A stretch of 64,000 nt of DNA, from contig CAYFFG010000004.1 of assembly GCA_964342355.1 (NCBI GenBank), positions 154,975-218,974 of the forward strand, given 5' to 3'. Source of the stretch: an uncultured Hyphomonadaceae bacterium. GTDB lineage: Bacteria; Pseudomonadota; Alphaproteobacteria; Caulobacterales; Hyphomonadaceae. Of this stretch, positions 2,062 to 46,341 are shown piece after piece. A program made the translations under genes and the position numbers. How positions within the stretch are numbered: position 1 is the stretch's first letter; every line of letters begins with the position of its first letter. The notes under the pieces are model-generated. The model was not told the origin of the DNA and did not search any database. It saw only the letters and a list, made by a program, of their open reading frames with translations.

Positions 2062-3792
2062 CTAACCGGCCGCATCCTCATTGATGAAAAGCTTTTTAAG
2101 CTCGGTTTTGAGAATTTTTCCGTTCGCGTTTCTTGGTAGCGTTTCTTCCGAGAAGAGAATCTTTACGGGGGTCTTGAAGATCGCCAGACGCGATTTCACC
2201 CACTGCTTCAGCTCCTCTTCCGTGGCTGACGTGCCTGGAGCGAGATGCACCACAGCTCCTGGCTCTTCACCAAGCGTGCGGTGCGGGATTGGCACGAGCG
2301 CCGCATCTGTCACGGCCGGATGGTCATAAAGAACGTTTTCCACTTCGCTGGAGTAGATGTTCTCACCGCCGCGAATAATGATGTCCTTGGCCCGGTCCAC
2401 GATGAAGCAGAAGCCTTCATCATCCAGACGCGCCAGATCTCCAGTTTTCACCCACCCATCGATAAAGGTTTCTTTCGTGGCGACAGGTTTGTTCCAGTAT
2501 TCCTGAACAACCATAGGGCCACGCGCCCACAACTCGCCAACTTCGCCAAGCGGCATTTCCTTTTGGCCGTCGTGATCCATGATTTTAAGGTCCGCAACAG
2601 GCACTGGCGGACCACAACTGTCGGGACGGTTTAAATAATCTTCTGCGCTATGACCTGTGACGGTTGCGGATGTTTCTGTCATCCCCCAACCGCTTCCCGG
2701 TTCTGCGCCAAAGACTTCCTTGATCTTGCGCACCAGTTCCGGCGCAGCTGGCGCACCGCCATATCCGATCGCCTCGAGCGAAGAGAGGTCATACTTGTCG
2801 CGGTCCGGGTGTTCGATCAATTGCCATGCAATCGTCGGCACGCCACCGGTCGCATAGACTTTTTCATCCTGAATGATCTCAAACGCTTTGATCACATCCC
2901 ACTTACGCATGAAGACGAGTTTGTGTCCGCCAAAGATTGTCCCCATCAGTCGCGCGCAACATGCGGTTACGTGGAAAAGTGGGATAACCAGAAGTGTCGT
3001 GCGTGGTTGCGGCTCTGGCAGCGCTTCGCCGCGACGCAGAGCCGCCCGCGCAACACCAAACGCAGATGAGAATATGTTGGTCGTCGAATTGCGGTGGGTG
3101 CCAAGCGCGCCTTTGGGATCACCCGTCGTCCCGGACGTGTAAAAGATCGTCGCATAATCATCCGCGACCACTCGATCTTGTGGAATTTGTTTTTCAGGCA
3201 AAGACGGATAGTCGTTCGGCGCGCCGATAATGTCTTCCAGCTTAAGCACATCGCTTGGCAGCTCATTCATCGAGCGGGACACAATCGTTGTTTCCAAAGC
3301 ATCCAGATGACGCACGCGCGGCGCGATTCTGTCCCAGCGCTGTTCGTCACACACCAGAACTTTAGACCCGGAATTCTCCAGGCCGTAATTAAGTTCGTCT
3401 GTCTTCCACCATGCGTTTAAGGGGACGACGATGGCGCCAATGCATGTCGCAGCAAAGAAGATAACAGGCCATTCCGGCAGATTAGCCATTGCAAGCGCAA
3501 CACGATCACCTTTCTTGACGCCTTTGCTTTCAAGGAATGCTGCAAAATTGGCAGTCGCACGATAAAAACCCTCAAACGTCATTCTGTCGTCTTCATAGAC
3601 GATGAACTCACACTCGCCGTGCGCACGGGAGTGCTCTGCCAGGGCTGGCAAAGTTGCGACACAGTTCTTCCATACCCGCGTCTGCACACCGCGAATATCG
3701 ATTGTATCCATTTCAAAATTTTCACCAGGCGCGCAGAGTGTGTCCTCTATCTGCTGATTGGACATAGCGGGCCACTGGCCGGATTCCGACAT
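2062..3792 (-). CDS. Long-chain acyl-CoA synthetase (class I adenylate-forming enzyme)
   Basis: YTSGTTGDPKG, GWGMTET, TGDLARLDDEG, RGGENIYSSEVE, NANGKILK. ATG at 3792 follows a GGAGG RBS. Confidence 0.93.
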   Translation of the reverse strand: MSESGQWPAMSNQQIEDTLCAPGENFEMDTIDIRGVQTRVWKNCVATLPALAEHSRAHGECEFIVYEDDRMTFEGFYRATANFAAFLESKGVKKGDRVALAMANLPEWPVIFFAATCIGAIVVPLNAWWKTDELNYGLENSGSKVLVCDEQRWDRIAPRVRHLDALETTIVSRSMNELPSDVLKLEDIIGAPNDYPSLPEKQIPQDRVVADDYATIFYTSGTTGDPKGALGTHRNSTTNIFSSAFGVARAALRRGEALPEPQPRTTLLVIPLFHVTACCARLMGTIFGGHKLVFMRKWDVIKAFEIIQDEKVYATGGVPTIAWQLIEHPDRDKYDLSSLEAIGYGGAPAAPELVRKIKEVFGAEPGSGWGMTETSATVTGHSAEDYLNRPDSCGPPVPVADLKIMDHDGQKEMPLGEVGELWARGPMVVQEYWNKPVATKETFIDGWVKTGDLARLDDEGFCFIVDRAKDIIIRGGENIYSSEVENVLYDHPAVTDAALVPIPHRTLGEEPGAVVHLAPGTSATEEELKQWVKSRLAIFKTPVKILFSEETLPRNANGKILKTELKKLFINEDAAG

Positions 3793-3900: not shown

Positions 3901-4171
3901 AAATGGCTCAATGCCCACATTTCGGGTATTGAGTATGTTTTATCCGCCCAACGCAATCAAAAGTGAACGCCAAAGGCTGAAATTTTGGAATTCCTCGTCG
4001 CCTGTCTCTTTTCTCACAAGCAAAATTGCGCATAAATACCCATGAATGCGCAGCAAAAATATCTACAACAATATAGCTTGCGTAATTGAGGAAGGCACAT
4101 CAAACACTTTTTTCTGCGATTTTAGGAGCCTTTTTACGCTCACTTTGCGGAATTTCATTGGGAGAAATAAA

Positions 4172-16963: not shown

Positions 16964-16992
16964 TTGACCATTCATCCGTGCACGCATATCTC
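16964..16992 (+). promoter_or_regulatory. Sigma70-type promoter of metA
   Basis: TTGACC-N17-TATCTC; predicted TSS (~16998) coincides with the riboswitch 5' end. Confidence 0.6.
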
Positions 16993-16997
16993 AACTG

Positions 16998-17052
16998 CCG
17001 TGGTGATTTGGTCGGCCGGATTGCAGCCACGTTAAATAAGTCGCTAAAAAGC
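16998..17052 (+). ncRNA. SAM-II (SAM-alpha) riboswitch
   Basis: CGTGG-TGATTTG...TTGCAG-CCACG-TTAAATAAGTC-GCTAAA matches the metA-leader SAM-II consensus; directly upstream of metA. Confidence 0.9.
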
Positions 17053-17137
17053 CCTTGGATGAAGTTGCTCTTGTCCACCTCGGCGAAGACTTGTTTTTTT
17101 AATCCACGCCGATTTGTTTCTGACTTGGAGCTTTGTC

Positions 17138-19557: not shown

Positions 19558-20784
19558 TCAATCCAAATCACGCGCCAACCGGATACCAATCATTGGCGCA
19601 CGCTGAGAAACTGAGCCTCTAAACCGCGCAGCAAAACGTGCGCTTAACGTATTGTCCTGCCAGCTAGCGCCACGCACCACACGCATCGACCCATCGCCAC
19701 TTGTCCAGGCCGCGCCATCAGGATGCGCATAGACATAGTTATTGTGCCAAAGGTCTTCAGTCCATTCGCGCACATTGCCGATCATATCGACCAGACCAAA
19801 CGCGTTGGGCTGTGCAAATCCGACAGGCTGCGTGCGCTGATCCTGGCGCCGAATACAATATGCCGATCGGTCAAAATCTCCTTCCGGCAGAGCGGCTTTA
19901 GATCCCGCGCGAGCGCAATATTCCCACTCGGCTTCGCTCGGCAGACGGTAATGCTCGCCCGTCACACCACATAGCGCATCCACAAAGGCCCGCGCATCTT
20001 CCCAGGATACGTTTATGACAGGACGGTTGCCCCGCCCCCAACCTTCATCAAAAGGAGAATGATCCACGCGTCCCGGCGCAATCAGATCCCATTCTTCAAA
20101 GGTCAACGGATAAACACCGATCGCGAATGGCTCTAAAATATTGACCCAGTGATGTGGACCTTCATTTTCACGTCGTCCGATTTCAGAATCCGGTGACCCC
20201 ATTTTAAACCGACCTTCCGGGATAACCCGCATCACAGGACCGTTTTCAATATCGCGAAAGGCAGTTCCGGGAGCAGAGTTCACACCGATACGGATACCGG
20301 ACATGACTTTTTCCCCGCCCGGTAGCTCACCCATGGTTTCATCCCAGGCAGCGGCTTCTGTTGCGGATGCTTCTCCACTTTCCAGGCGCTTCTTGGCCGT
20401 GACAAGGTCTTTGACCCAGGTCAGACACTTGACCCACTGGCGATCGTTGGGATCGCCCTTCCATTGCTGAAGCTGTGCCGCTTGGGTGAGCGTGAATGCA
20501 AGCGGGATGGTACAGTTTTTAACCTGCGCCGGAACAAGTTTTTTGTTGTTACTAGCAAAATGCGCTTCAGTGCGCACCCATTCAGACGAAACTGAGAGCG
20601 GGCTCCACAAAACCACAACAGCCGCCGCTTCGGTGATTTCCCGTTCAATGGTTTCGTCCCAAGAGCTGGCCGGATTGATGCGATCGTCCCACCACACCGT
20701 AAATCCAGCCTGTTGAAAGAGCTCGACAAACTTGTTTGCGATCTCTTTTTCTTCACGCTTGTAGCTAATGAATATATCCGCCAT
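19558..20784 (-). CDS. TIR domain - FGE-sulfatase (SUMF1/EgtB-like) fusion
   Basis: N-terminal DIFISYKRE...VWWD...VVVLWSPLSVSSEWVRTEA (TIR_2). C-terminal FKMGSP, NEGPHH, PVINVSWEDA, RLPSEAEWEY, NAFGLVDMIGNVREW, RGASW. Confidence 0.92.
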   Translation of the reverse strand: MADIFISYKREEKEIANKFVELFQQAGFTVWWDDRINPASSWDETIEREITEAAAVVVLWSPLSVSSEWVRTEAHFASNNKKLVPAQVKNCTIPLAFTLTQAAQLQQWKGDPNDRQWVKCLTWVKDLVTAKKRLESGEASATEAAAWDETMGELPGGEKVMSGIRIGVNSAPGTAFRDIENGPVMRVIPEGRFKMGSPDSEIGRRENEGPHHWVNILEPFAIGVYPLTFEEWDLIAPGRVDHSPFDEGWGRGNRPVINVSWEDARAFVDALCGVTGEHYRLPSEAEWEYCARAGSKAALPEGDFDRSAYCIRRQDQRTQPVGFAQPNAFGLVDMIGNVREWTEDLWHNNYVYAHPDGAAWTSGDGSMRVVRGASWQDNTLSARFAARFRGSVSQRAPMIGIRLARDLD

Positions 20785-20861: not shown

Positions 20862-20876
20862 TTAACGGTATATTAA
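20862..20876. promoter_or_regulatory. CtrA box (TTAA-N7-TTAA)
   Basis: TTAA CGGTATA TTAA in the divergent promoter between TIR-FGE and the M48-like gene. Confidence 0.6.
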
Positions 20877-20908
20877 ACACAATGCTCAGCGACAGAGGGG
20901 ACGCCGTC

Positions 20909-21799
20909 GTGGATCGCAAGACATTCAAAGCCTGCATTCATCCAAAAGAGTTTCCGCGATTTATACTCGCGTGCTTTTTTGCCGTGCCTTTGGCGATCGC
21001 TGTGGTTCTGGCGTGCGTTTTCACCTTCGGGATTGTCGCGCTTTATATCGGCTTGATCGTCCTTTTTGTTTGGATCGGCTTTCGCACCCTTTATGCGGTG
21101 TTCGTCGGCAACGCAGTGTTGGTCAGCGAGCTCAATTATCCGCGGGTGAAGCGATTGCTCGACGAGGCGCGCGATACAATTGGCGTTAAAAAGAAAGTGC
21201 ACGTTTTCGTCTTTGATGAATCTTCTTTCAACGCCGCGTTCAGCTATATGTTCGGCCGTTATGCGATCTTTCTGAATTCCGCCCTGCTGGAGCAAGAAGC
21301 AAACGATAAAGAACTCCGCTGGATTATGGGACGGTTTATCGGCCGTATCCGCGCCAAAAAACGCCTTGGCATCTTTAACTGGGCCATTGAGATGACCGAG
21401 CGGATCTTGATCTTCAACTTTTTCTTGCTGCCCTATGAACGCGCCACTGTATATTCAGGCGACAGGATCGCACTGGCTGACATTAATGGCGATATCTCTA
21501 CTGCCGTTGAAGCCATGAACAAACTCTACACAGGCGCTAAGCTGGGCTACGCCATCAACCCGGCTGGAATCGTCGAACAACGCCGCCTGATTAAGGGATC
21601 GTTCTTTTCATTTCTGGCGCGCATCATGTCGCCTATGCCGCATATGACAGATCGGTATGTGGATCTTATCGCCTTTGCCCGTCGCGCCTACCCAGCTGAA
21701 TATGCGCGCTTTGTACAGTCCAACCCGTCATTCCCACCGCCAGATAACATGATGGGCATTGCTGACGAAGCGGCAAACGACGACATCAAGGCTGCTTAA
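20909..21799 (+). CDS. M48 (HtpX/Ste24p)-like membrane protein lacking zinc ligands
   Basis: M48 scaffold (YPRV, FNA, ELRWIMG, SGDR, KL) with HExxH replaced by RFIGR. GTG at 20909 follows GAGGGG (ORF track starts at 20882). Confidence 0.75.
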   Translation: MDRKTFKACIHPKEFPRFILACFFAVPLAIAVVLACVFTFGIVALYIGLIVLFVWIGFRTLYAVFVGNAVLVSELNYPRVKRLLDEARDTIGVKKKVHVFVFDESSFNAAFSYMFGRYAIFLNSALLEQEANDKELRWIMGRFIGRIRAKKRLGIFNWAIEMTERILIFNFFLLPYERATVYSGDRIALADINGDISTAVEAMNKLYTGAKLGYAINPAGIVEQRRLIKGSFFSFLARIMSPMPHMTDRYVDLIAFARRAYPAEYARFVQSNPSFPPPDNMMGIADEAANDDIKAA

Positions 21800-37197: not shown

Positions 37198-38157
37198 TTA
37201 AACGTCTTTGTCTTCCACAGACGACACACTGTCTGTGTCTGTCAAAGAGACGTTTTGAAAGCCTCTGATGCTGGCCTGCATCTTTTGAGCTTTCGCCTGA
37301 CGCACAGTGGTCCACTCGCGCCCTTGAGGGAAGCGATAGAAAATGTGCGTACCAATCGTTGTGGTGTGGATCAGGCCCGAGCGCCAGTAAGGCGACACGT
37401 AATTTGTGTGATAGTGGGTAGCGCCTTCTGTCAGCGGCTTTTCGCTAAGGCCCATCATGACATAGCCCGCCACTTCAACCGCACGCGCCCAGGCGTCGCC
37501 ACGCGGCTTTCTGCTCATGGACCCGTCACACGTAAAGGAGAACTGACACCCAGTTACTCGGTGCGCGCCTTCATACACCACATCACAGATACTGTCCGGA
37601 TAATGTTCGGACTCAACGCGGTTTTGAATAACCTCAGCCACAGCCAGCTGTCCTGTCAGGTCTTCGCTACGCGCTTCGTAATAGATCGCTTCAGACAGAC
37701 AATAGTGCTGAACACGCATCGTCTCAGCGTCTTGCACGGTCTGGCGCGGCGAAAGATTCGAAAGGATATCTATAAAGGAAGACTCTTCATCGTCAGACGG
37801 CGAATACGTCAAGCTTGCCAGCATTGTGTCCGGCGCAGCTGTCGCCGACACCTGTTCGCGCCAAGGCTTGGTAATGTCCAACGCAGCAACACCGATCTGC
37901 CCGTCCTGAGACTCGCTGATCAACGTGGCAAGTTGAGTGGCCTGAGCCAGAAAAGCTTCTTCGTCTTTTTGCACACTTGCGTGGTCCGCAACCAGCGGCG
38001 CACCGTAAGCGGCGGCGGCAGCGGCGCATGCAATTCCTACCGCGCGCTGCTGCATTAAACGTTTTTCTTCTGCCGACATCTTAATCAATCCGACAACGAC
38101 GTTTACAAAAAACGCCAGACAGGTCGAAACGATACGCAATGTCGCTTTCGAAAACAT
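37198..38157 (-). CDS. sleB: Cell wall hydrolase, SleB family
   Basis: CLSEAIYYEARSE, AVAEVIQNRV, CQFSFTCDG, GATHYHTNYVSPYW, IGTHIFY; start position uncertain. Confidence 0.9.
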   Translation of the reverse strand: MFSKATLRIVSTCLAFFVNVVVGLIKMSAEEKRLMQQRAVGIACAAAAAAYGAPLVADHASVQKDEEAFLAQATQLATLISESQDGQIGVAALDITKPWREQVSATAAPDTMLASLTYSPSDDEESSFIDILSNLSPRQTVQDAETMRVQHYCLSEAIYYEARSEDLTGQLAVAEVIQNRVESEHYPDSICDVVYEGAHRVTGCQFSFTCDGSMSRKPRGDAWARAVEVAGYVMMGLSEKPLTEGATHYHTNYVSPYWRSGLIHTTTIGTHIFYRFPQGREWTTVRQAKAQKMQASIRGFQNVSLTDTDSVSSVEDKDV

Positions 38158-38253
38158 TAACAACAAAGAACCCCAGCCTCAGCCTGATAACACTTAAATC
38201 GCCGTTACAGGCTTCGATCACTCCCCTAGAAGAACGACCAGCGCGCGACGAAT

Positions 38254-38268
38254 TTAATTGTTTGTTAA
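38254..38268. promoter_or_regulatory. CtrA box upstream of sleB
   Basis: TTAA TTGTTTG TTAA. Confidence 0.65.
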
Positions 38269-45116: not shown

Positions 45117-45671
45117 CTAAAGCGTCTTCATAAACAGTGCAAAAGCGGTGAGACCTTCCGGCCAGGGGCCCTGTCCGCTGGCTTCGTTTATGTGAGCCGC
45201 ATCACCTGCGTCAATGACAGTTGCCCCCCATGCAGCGGCAAATTCGCTTGCGCGCTCGAATGTACAAAACGGGTCAGTACGGCTAGCGACTAACTGCGTT
45301 GGAAATGGCATTTTCTGTCTCGGGATCGGCGCAAAGTCGTGGTCATCAAATCCGGGAATCAATCCTTCACGCTCCCAGTCAGAAGGCGTTACCAGAAAAG
45401 CGCCTTTAACTTTGCCAGTATCCATGCGCCCGATTGCATGTGCGATAGCGATTACACCAAGCGAATGACCGACCAACACGACCGGTCTCGTCGCGTTTTC
45501 GATTGCCAAAGCGATATCAGCCACCCAGTCGTCTTTTTTAGGCGAAATCACATCAGCATGGTCTATCATTTGCGCTGTCGTCATCTGCCGGGCCCAACGA
45601 CGTTGCCAGTGATTATCTGTGCGCTCGCCATAGCCTGGAGAAATCAGAATGTCTGCTTCGGCAATTTTCAC
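45117..45671 (-). CDS. RBBP9/YdeN-family alpha/beta hydrolase
   Basis: PGY..HWQ, VGHSLG nucleophile elbow, ASRTDPF, GDAAHIN..SG.GPW. GTG at 45671 follows GGAG (ORF track start 45713). Confidence 0.9.
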   Translation of the reverse strand: MKIAEADILISPGYGERTDNHWQRRWARQMTTAQMIDHADVISPKKDDWVADIALAIENATRPVVLVGHSLGVIAIAHAIGRMDTGKVKGAFLVTPSDWEREGLIPGFDDHDFAPIPRQKMPFPTQLVASRTDPFCTFERASEFAAAWGATVIDAGDAAHINEASGQGPWPEGLTAFALFMKTL

Positions 45672-45727
45672 AATGCGCTCCTGAACCAATTGATCCGGGC
45701 TGCATAGCTTCATCCGAAAGAAGAATC

Positions 45728-45766
45728 AAAAAAGCGCCGGAGGTGAAAACCTCACAGCGCTTTTTT
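45728..45766. terminator. Intrinsic terminator downstream of the 35-aa ORF
   Basis: AAAAAAGCGC..GAGGT-GAAA-ACCTC..GCGCTTTTTT. Confidence 0.8.
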
Positions 45767-45791
45767 GAACTCTACAAAACTTTTAAACGGT

Positions 45792-45899
45792 CTAGTCGTT
45801 TTTCTTGAGCAACGACGCAGGGTCGAAGCGATAAGCGAAATACACACCAGCGCTAAGTGCTGCCAGAATGTATATGAGCGTTTGTGTGCTTTGTTCCAT
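45792..45899 (-). CDS. Small membrane protein (35 aa), probably leaderless
   Basis: Hand translation MEQSTQTLIYILAALSAGVYFAYRFDPASLLKKND; CtrA box upstream, terminator downstream; not in ORF track. Confidence 0.65.
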   Translation of the reverse strand: MEQSTQTLIYILAALSAGVYFAYRFDPASLLKKND

Positions 45900-45922
45900 A
45901 ACAGTTAAATTGCTCTGTTTTT

Positions 45923-45938
45923 GTTAAATTGACCTTAA
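45923..45938 (-). promoter_or_regulatory. CtrA box (TTAA-N7-TTAAC)
   Basis: Minus strand TTAA GGTCAAT TTAAC at -39..-24 from the 35-aa ORF ATG. Confidence 0.7.
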
Positions 45939-46176
45939 CGCAACTCACGGGACCAACCCGTGTTTCTGTGCATAAAAATCTACTGAAAAAACAAGAATGA
46001 GCCGATAAACAGACTTTCTTGTTCACTTGAAAGACAGAAACAGAATATGCCGAACGTACCGCAATTTGCGATGAAATCATAATGTTTCATGCACGCAGCT
46101 TTGTAAGTTCGACAGAATCGATTGATCCGCCCACCAAGGATTGGGGCGCGGTGGGTAACCAGATTGAGTGATTGTG

Positions 46177-46341
46177 TCAATCGTCTTTAGACTGACGATG
46201 ATCTTTTATGGAACGAACATTGTTCGATCCATCGCCTTTATCGTCCAGATCATCATCCGGTTTCTTTTTGAAAAAAAATGGCGCGAGAAAAGCGGCAATA
46301 AGGGCGATGACAATCGCAAAGAAAATAAGGCGGCCTACCAT
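46177..46341 (-). CDS. Small single-pass membrane protein (54 aa)
   Basis: GGAG SD, then MVGRLIFFAIVIALIAAFLAPFFFKKKPDDDLDDKGDGSNNVRSIKDHRQSKDD; 3 bp after the methyltransferase stop; not in ORF track. Confidence 0.75.
   Translation of the reverse strand: MVGRLIFFAIVIALIAAFLAPFFFKKKPDDDLDDKGDGSNNVRSIKDHRQSKDD

Follow-up and report, generated by a model that had tools for sequence, protein, structure and literature searches.

The locus described here raises the question whether a short, unannotated reading frame of 35 codons, lying between a methyltransferase gene and the glyQ region of a marine, Hirschia-like Hyphomonadaceae bacterium, is a gene in its own right, and how its expression would be started, timed and ended. 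The window, by which we mean the whole stretch of 64,000 nucleotides that has been analysed, matches marine metagenome runs, and the genes of the locus all lie on its minus strand in the order DUF2007, small-domain methyltransferase, 54-aa membrane ORF, a 277-nt spacer, the 35-aa ORF, Ser_hydrolase, glyQ, a 162-aa ORF and glyS. The reading that we favour, and that we hold to be moderately probable, is that of a free-standing, CtrA-activated, leaderless gene for a membrane microprotein, which has its own terminator and is timed by the cell cycle.

The 35-aa reading frame and its product

The frame has been found on the minus strand where the first-pass annotation had placed it, and its parts are as follows:

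45792..45899, minus strand: 35-aa ORF from ATG to TAG, including the stop codon (TAG at 45794-45792)
45897..45899, minus strand: ATG start codon and predicted (leaderless) transcription start; ATG invariant in 7/7 lineages
45831..45881, minus strand: putative transmembrane helix, codons 7-23, hydrophobic, with an invariant AAL-x-AGV (small-xxx-small) core

The segment 45899..45792 encodes the peptide MEQSTQTLIYILAALSAGVYFAYRFDPASLLKKND in 35 codons. An in-frame TAA stands 24 nt 5' of the ATG with no ATG, GTG or TTG in between, so that only one start is possible for this frame. An internal start at Met5, which some relatives possess and gene callers have chosen for the proteins P0003 and P0004, has been rejected as the general start, as Thr occupies this position in the window, L013, L014 and L017; the MEQS/MDQS N-terminus, which is conserved in all lineages, likewise argues for the outer ATG.

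Orthologues have been recovered by a profile search seeded by a two-sequence alignment, by an exhaustive HMM search and by a metagenome scan. Besides the window, the gene is present in six further Hirschia-like marine lineages (L013; L014; L001 (=L015, L016); L002-L009; L010-L012; L017-L021) and occupies the same locus position in every one, with the order methyltransferase, 54-aa ORF, gap, 35-aa ORF, Ser_hydrolase and glyQ shared by all seven. Among the matches listed, the only close relative of the hydrolase in species-representative genomes has been found in a MAG labelled Hirschia sp. SP140 (L001). The microprotein shows 68-86% identity to that of the window and is more conserved than the flanking hydrolase (58-67%) and methyltransferase (54-69%), the corresponding range for GlyQ being 74-92%. 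The first-pass annotation had made its proposal depend on the conservation of the ORF and of the box in front of it, and both have been kept in the seven syntenic lineages.

The differences between the orthologues carry the mark of coding sequence. Of 31 positions of each kind, the seven lineages vary at 11 first, 8 second and 28 third codon positions (p = 2e-4), and the window differs from L010 at 7 first, 5 second and 21 third positions. Pairwise dN/dS values of the ORF range from 0.08 to 0.40 and are mostly ~0.1, at a dS of >1 that brings synonymous sites near saturation. A chance ORF is ruled out by the conservation together with the codon-position tests, and judged by this comparative evidence the 35-aa ORF is a genuine protein-coding gene. 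Two other frames have been considered and set aside: an antisense ORF on the plus strand (45765..45908) is far less conserved, and its first codon positions coincide with the variable sites, while a second micro-ORF in the spacer of the window (36 aa, MKHYDF...) shows no conservation in L013 or L014.

Regarding the product, the first-pass annotation had described one hydrophobic helix with a KK tail. The helix has held up, with a Kyte-Doolittle mean of 1.7-2.2 over the best 17 residues in every lineage (5-21 in some, 7-23 in others) and an AlphaFold model that places residues 2-24 in a helix at pLDDT >90 and, after an interruption at Asp-Pro, shows a further short helix; by both measures the hydrophobic stretch is long enough for a membrane span. 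The KK tail has turned out to be lineage-specific and is no conserved feature. What has been kept across the orthologues is the juxtamembrane motif Y-R-[FI]-D-[PL] with a short polar tail behind it, and the invariant residues gather in I-L-A-A-L-x-A-G-V and in Y-R-x-D. As far as hydropathy, structure prediction and dN/dS tell, the 35-aa product is a single-pass membrane microprotein whose coding sequence is under purifying selection, and its topology is probably N-out, C-in.

Searches of Pfam and NCBIfam with the microprotein gave no match at E <= 10, and neither an Flp prepilin domain nor a G/XXXXEY motif, the marks of an Flp/Tad pilin (a pilA-like CtrA target), has been found in it. A collection of 15 billion proteins does not contain the exact window peptide; among 1.84 billion representative proteins, an exhaustive HMM search has found two true clusters only; and none of the clusters that hold the microproteins of five relatives is named.

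Two neighbouring frames deserve a separate remark. The 54-aa ORF (46177-46341, minus strand) starts 3 nt after the methyltransferase stop and encodes one hydrophobic helix with an acidic/basic tail; it shows 46-51% identity, has been called as a gene of 51-59 aa in every related contig and belongs to no Pfam family. At the start of the Ser_hydrolase gene (45669-45713, minus strand), homology with all relatives begins only at residue 15, a GTG at 45671 that is preceded by AGGAG and where the relatives start with MKIS...; by this alignment, the hydrolase ORF as listed is probably too long.

The CtrA-type box and the start of transcription

Two elements in front of the ATG are needed for what follows:

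45923..45939, minus strand: CtrA-type box GTTAA-N7-TTAAC, a perfect palindrome, first T of TTAA at -39 from the ATG
45907..45912, minus strand: putative weak -10-like hexamer CAATTT, -13 to -8 from the ATG, as read from the sequence

A perfect TTAA-N7-TTAAC at -39 to -24 from the ATG had been reported before, and our motif scan has recovered it: the box TTAAGGTCAATTTAAC occupies 45938..45923, i.e., -39 to -24 counted from the A of the ATG, with GGTCAAT as N7, and the minus strand runs into the start codon as CGTTAAGGTCAATTTAACAAAAACAGAGCAATTTAACTGTT-ATG. Because a flanking G makes the full palindrome GTTAA-N7-TTAAC, the box is scored on both strands. A second promoter on the plus strand, built on the same palindrome, has been rejected, as nothing is conserved there and no ATG lies at the right distance.

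The perfect TTAA-N7-TTAAC is the sole one in 64 kb, where 0.30 would be expected and at least two matches have occurred in 5 of 100 shuffles; its uniqueness, taken alone, is only mildly unusual. The shorter TTAA-N7-TTAA occurs at three sites of the window, each of them intergenic, where 0.47 would be expected; 1 of 100 shuffles reaches this number. The weight of the box evidence comes from its position and conservation, since in 7/7 lineages the best match to TTAA-N7-TTAAC departs from it at no more than one base and starts 39 or 40 nt before the orthologous ATG:

Window: TTAAGGTCAATTTAAC
L013: TTAATACGACATTAAT
L014: TTAATATGAAATTAAT
L001: TTAATACCTTTTTTAC
L002: TTAACCACTGCTTCAC
L010: TTAAGACTTGGTTTAC
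L017: TTAACCGACAATTGAC

The 5' TTAA is invariant, and the 3' half reads TTAAC, TTAAT, TTTAC, TTCAC or TTGAC. The intergenic length ranges from 248 to 425 nt, and the remaining spacer defies alignment between sub-clades, while box and ATG keep a fixed distance; in the last 45 nt before the ATG, TTAA and TT-x-A(C/T) are the only conserved columns. Against the favoured reading, the box is perfect in the window only, its 3' half being degenerate in 6/7 lineages, three relatives have a GANTC site behind it instead, and the -10 of the window is poor. The -10-like hexamers of the relatives include GATTAT (L014) and TAGCCT (L017) at -12 to -7 and TATAAT (L010) at -14 to -9.

CtrA is to be expected in Caulobacterales and Hyphomonadaceae, and Hyphomonas neptunium presumably belongs to the same family as the source bacterium. 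In this species, CtrA ChIP-seq has yielded the consensus TTAA-N7-TTAAC (PMC7200025). In the supplements of that Hyphomonas study, no CtrA peak adjoining glyQ-type genes has been found, and the species may lack the microprotein gene. For Caulobacter, in the part of dataset S5 considered here, the CtrA full motif has its 5' base at -38 to -40 from the mapped start site in 31 of 44 rows, among them ctrA P2, ccrM, fliQ, fliF, divK and ftsQ, and its functional 3' halves include TTTA, TTCA and TTAG (Zhou et al., 2015, PMC4287350). The earlier suggestion that the box lies about where CtrA sites lie at activated promoters agrees with these rows, as the distance is -39/-40 from the ATG here and, from the mapped start site, modally -38 to -40 in that part of the Caulobacter data (PMC4287350).

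The conserved bases may also be read without CtrA, TTAA...TTNAC then forming an AT-rich or UP-like element of a housekeeping promoter whose start site lies further upstream and leaves a short leader without SD. The degenerate 3' half-site would suit such a promoter, as would the many genes here without an SD core, an RNA contig (X11, see below) that spans the promoter region of L001, and the TATA -10-like elements at -15 to -9 in L001, L002 and L010, which would put the transcription start 1-3 nt before the ATG. However, the spacers between the half-sites and the -10-like hexamers amount to 19-21 nt or 8-10 nt, both unworkable for a -35 where sigma-70 spacing is normally 16-18 nt; the spacer comparison has revealed no conserved sequence 5' of the box; and it is just the bases of the CtrA half-sites, set at the very distance seen in Caulobacter, that are invariant. 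We consider such a CtrA-independent promoter quite unlikely. By their spacing, the half-sites appear unfit as a -35, which is typical of an activator-dependent promoter.

Returning to the CtrA-activated gene, transcription is expected to start at the first base of the ATG or one position to either side, because the box stands at -39/-40 here and at -38 to -40 from the start site in Caulobacter; on this geometry, which is carried over from Caulobacter, the transcript would begin at or beside the start codon. The -10-like hexamers of the relatives are in accord with such a start. No SD core (GGAG, GAGG, AGGA or AAGG) has been found within 20 nt 5' of the ATG in any of the seven lineages, in line with the missing SD of the first-pass annotation. 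A missing SD is weak evidence by itself, since only 14-25 of the 50 long ORFs of the window have a core (14 at their first start codon) and about half or more of the genes in this genome lack one. Leaderless translation in Caulobacter requires an AUG, no leader and an accessible 5' end (Bharmal et al., 2021, PMC8459731), and each extra leader base roughly halves the output (PMC8459731). The ATG in 7/7 lineages agrees with the AUG preference of leaderless mRNAs. The unfolding energy of the first 50 nt (dG-unfold) is 0.4-9.2 kcal/mol, a value in the range of Caulobacter leaderless mRNAs (mean 5.6 kcal/mol, PMC8459731) but no different from that of shuffled sequences. By analogy with these mRNAs, the microprotein gene is probably translated without a ribosome-binding leader.

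Further sites have been noted near the box and elsewhere in the window. A GACTC, i.e., a GANTC site of the CcrM methylation/GcrA type, follows straight after the box at -24/-23 in L001 (3762-3766), L002 and L010 (~2965-2969 in both), and only in these three, where its place hints at a combined control by CtrA and methylation. In the window, a GC hairpin, CACGGGACCAACCCGTG, lies 6 nt 5' of the box (45946-45962); it is not conserved in L013 or L014 and may be the end of the upstream transcript that carries the methyltransferase and the 54-aa ORF. A perfect TTAA-N7-TTAA, TTAATTGTTTGTTAA, is situated at 38254-38268, upstream of a gene for a cell-wall hydrolase on the minus strand (Pfam Hydrolase_2, ORF 37198-38166), and from this position it is plausible as a second CtrA target, one with a leader. 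Another perfect site, TTAACGGTATATTAA, is found at 20862-20876 between a gene for a TIR and FGE-sulfatase fusion (19558-20784, minus strand) and a gene for an M48-like membrane peptidase (20882-21799, plus strand), the ATG of which it precedes by 20 nt.

The 3' end and the RNA of the locus

Three elements bear on the end of the transcript and on a possible function of the RNA itself:

45728..45766, minus strand: intrinsic terminator with an A-run, a hairpin (45760..45734) and a T-run of six T (45733..45728), from RNAalifold
45769..45775, minus strand: 3'UTR heptamer GTAGAGT, invariant, directly 5' of the terminator
45837..45876, minus strand: possible RNA hairpin within the coding sequence (mRNA nt 24-63), its pairs joining third codon positions to one another

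A simple hairpin scan has missed the terminator owing to a one-base bulge, and RNAalifold has recovered it with covariation: the consensus structure has -20.8 kcal/mol, compensatory double changes have occurred in 5 of 12 pairs, and the hairpin has been kept in all lineages. By this covariation, the own terminator that had been assigned to the gene at 45728-66 is real, with hairpin and T-run, and it is taken to act in the sense direction because relatives with GC-rich stems have no A-run 5' of the hairpin.

RNA from this region has been found in the sister lineage L001, where four independent (meta)transcriptomes have contigs only near the microprotein gene in 8.6 kb that include glyQ and part of glyS. 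With the ATG at 3786 and the end of the T-run at 3987/3988, the contigs over the gene body, of 150-194 nt and unstranded, lie as follows:

L001 3800-3988: gene-body contig of X8
L001 3804-3997: gene-body contig of X9
L001 3805-3954: gene-body contig of X10

All this evidence consists of assembled contigs without strand. In the three runs, the gene-body contigs start inside the ORF, 14-19 nt past the ATG, which is compatible with a transcript that starts at the ATG; their 5' ends presumably reflect the loss of 5'-terminal bases in cDNA libraries. At the 3' side, X8 ends at the T-run and X9 9 nt beyond it, while the gene-body contig of X10 stops at 3954 and a second one from this run (3970-4138) continues into the hydrolase. 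Judged by these contigs, the L001 RNA is short, discrete and relatively abundant, and the claim of a stand-alone unit fits such an RNA. The fourth run, X11, has a contig (3652-3807) that takes in the spacer, the promoter and 22 nt at the start of the ORF; it stops at the point where the contigs of the other three set in. It may represent antisense RNA or read-through that comes from the upstream unit; some upstream-initiated or antisense RNA does exist in L001. For the lineage of the window, RNA coverage is confined to the end of the methyltransferase and the 54-aa ORF, with none over the microprotein gene, and the runs that match L014 have given nothing informative on RNA.

A small hydrophobic peptide with a polar tail, encoded by an abundant short RNA, also recalls type I toxins, whose synthesis is silenced by antisense or fold-back RNA. 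The X11 contig, which overlaps the start of the ORF, could be such an antisense RNA, and minimum-free-energy folds do pair the 5' coding region with the 3'UTR. Yet the energies of these 5'-3' duplexes are no better than those with dinucleotide-shuffled 3'UTRs (fraction 0.09-0.66), which speaks against a hok-like fold-back; there is neither a structured 5'UTR nor a recognisable antisense promoter or terminator, nor a Pfam/NCBIfam match; and a single copy in strict synteny with saturated synonymous divergence contrasts with the patchy, multi-copy distribution of type I loci. A toxin of this type is very improbable here.

The heptamer directs attention to the RNA itself. GTAGAGT is found 5-8 nt before the terminator in seven lineages and almost nowhere else in the loci; it is present twice, with a period of 12-13 nt, in five lineages and once in the window and L017. 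In the relatives, it lies at the following positions:

L001: 3929-3947
L002: 3131-3150
L010: 3135-3154
L013: 3141-3160
L014: 1640-1659
L017: 1008-1014

The motif may be a small-RNA seed, or its TAGAGT may serve the hydrolase-glyQS genes as a -10-like element. Only 27-28 nt separate the terminator from the start codon of the hydrolase in L013 and L014, and the X10 contig that begins at L001 3970 would fit a transcription start near the base of the hairpin. Within the ORF, the possible hairpin has 84% of its cells paired in the seven lineages and four pairs with compensatory double changes, which 6-26 of 500 shuffles have equalled; a conserved RNA hairpin at this place is suggestive only.

These observations admit a dual-function or even mainly regulatory RNA, a transcript of ~170-200 nt that would base-pair through the GUAGAGU of its 3'UTR and for which the ORF would be a second or lesser function. 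Besides the invariance and duplication of the heptamer and the possible hairpin, metatranscriptomes show the transcript much more prominently than its housekeeping neighbours, and the extracts of PMC4287350 considered here include CtrA-driven small RNAs of Caulobacter, e.g., CCNA_R0094 with its motif at -38. The codon-position signature and a dN/dS of ~0.1, however, show selection on the peptide, with which a dual role would be compatible; Rfam gives no match at the locus; no target has been found, the sole ACTCTAC of the window lying deep within an ORF; and TAGAGT can equally be a -10-like DNA element of the hydrolase-glyQS genes. Taken together, we regard a dual-function or mainly regulatory RNA as unlikely. 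The sole Rfam match in the window is a SAM_alpha riboswitch (RF00521, 80 bits) at 16990-17068 on the plus strand, which confirms that the DNA is alphaproteobacterial.

In four sister lineages, a second unit has been found in tandem, ~190-280 nt 5' of the microprotein ORF. It comprises a hydrophobic ORF of 26-29 aa (MQIAFQILS...; MQIAFQILSLASSMLLLVAVASSPSR and variants), with a CtrA-like box that starts 38-41 nt before its ATG and is perfect in L010 (TTAAGGCCGATTTAAC):

L001 3555-3673: second unit
L002 2756-2877: second unit
L010 2756-2876: second unit
L017 544-671: second unit

The window, L013 and L014 have no such unit. One may combine these elements into a cell-cycle-timed bifunctional RNA module, in which a leaderless mRNA fired by CtrA would encode the microprotein, while its 3'UTR with tandem GUAGAGU and terminator would also act as a regulatory RNA or as a signal for hydrolase-glyQS, the whole being doubled in four sister lineages. 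We hold this combination to be improbable; if it were true, the second boxed and apparently leaderless ORF of 26-29 aa would suggest a small family of micro-ORF cassettes that are timed by CtrA and confined to budding Hirschia-like bacteria.

Proposed mechanism and comparison with known systems

For the CtrA-activated, leaderless gene that we favour, the following course of expression can be proposed. Phosphorylated CtrA would bind the TTAA-N7-TTAAC box, whose upstream half-site overlaps the -35 position, and would recruit RNA polymerase to a promoter with a weak -10 and without a proper -35. Transcription would begin with the A of the ATG or a base beside it and give a leaderless mRNA of ~170 nt, on the 5' AUG of which ribosomes would load directly; as the covariation shows, the transcript ends at its own intrinsic terminator. 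The predicted product is a 35-aa protein with a transmembrane helix at about residues 7-23, an AAL-x-AGV packing face, a Y-R-F-D-P juxtamembrane motif and a polar tail, which may dock on a larger membrane protein. By analogy with the full-motif promoters of Caulobacter, the microprotein would be made while CtrA~P is abundant, in the predivisional or budding stage, and its expression is probably specific to this stage of the cell cycle. A role of the microprotein as a polarity or division factor is speculation.

The first-pass observation holds, and the tests open to sequence data support its interpretation. The case made from sequence is unusually complete, as it joins purifying selection, a regulator site at a meaningful distance, a covarying terminator and RNA from a sister lineage. 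The locus illustrates how systematically microproteins are missed, and it challenges no current concept. In Hyphomonas, 37% of the direct CtrA regulon is without known function (PMC7200025). If the control by CtrA holds, a lineage-specific membrane effector would be added to the CtrA regulon of budding, stalked marine bacteria.

The microprotein represents a new family without a name, of kinds that are already known. Small single-pass membrane regulators include Caulobacter SidA, a protein of 29 aa that binds the divisome, and MgrB, AcrZ and MgtS of E. coli. The microprotein resembles them in its size, its one transmembrane helix, a small-xxx-small face that suggests helix-helix docking, and the tight control by a global regulator that is predicted for it; in contrast, it shares no sequence similarity with them, and its regulator would be CtrA instead of LexA or PhoP. 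SgrS/SgrT and other 3'UTR-derived or dual-function RNAs offer a further parallel in the short and abundant transcript, the small ORF and the conserved single-stranded motif next to the terminator on its 5' side, whereas the coding signal dominates here. With the leaderless mRNAs of Caulobacter (Schrader et al., 2014, PMC4117421; Bharmal et al., 2021, PMC8459731), the gene has in common the AUG start and the lack of an SD, and would also share the lack of a leader and a low predicted 5' unfolding energy, its class being assigned here from promoter geometry and the ends of RNA contigs. In promoter structure, the locus resembles the CtrA full-motif promoters of Caulobacter crescentus, which in the parts of the dataset considered here (ctrA P2, ccrM, fliQ, divK and ftsQ; PMC4287350) have the same TTAA-N7-TTAA(C) spacing, no canonical -35 and a tolerated degeneracy of the 3' half. 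Unlike these, the locus belongs to another organism, its distance is counted from the ATG, and its predicted transcription start coincides with the start codon; if CtrA control is true, it would represent a clean natural case in which a CtrA promoter leads straight into a leaderless start codon.
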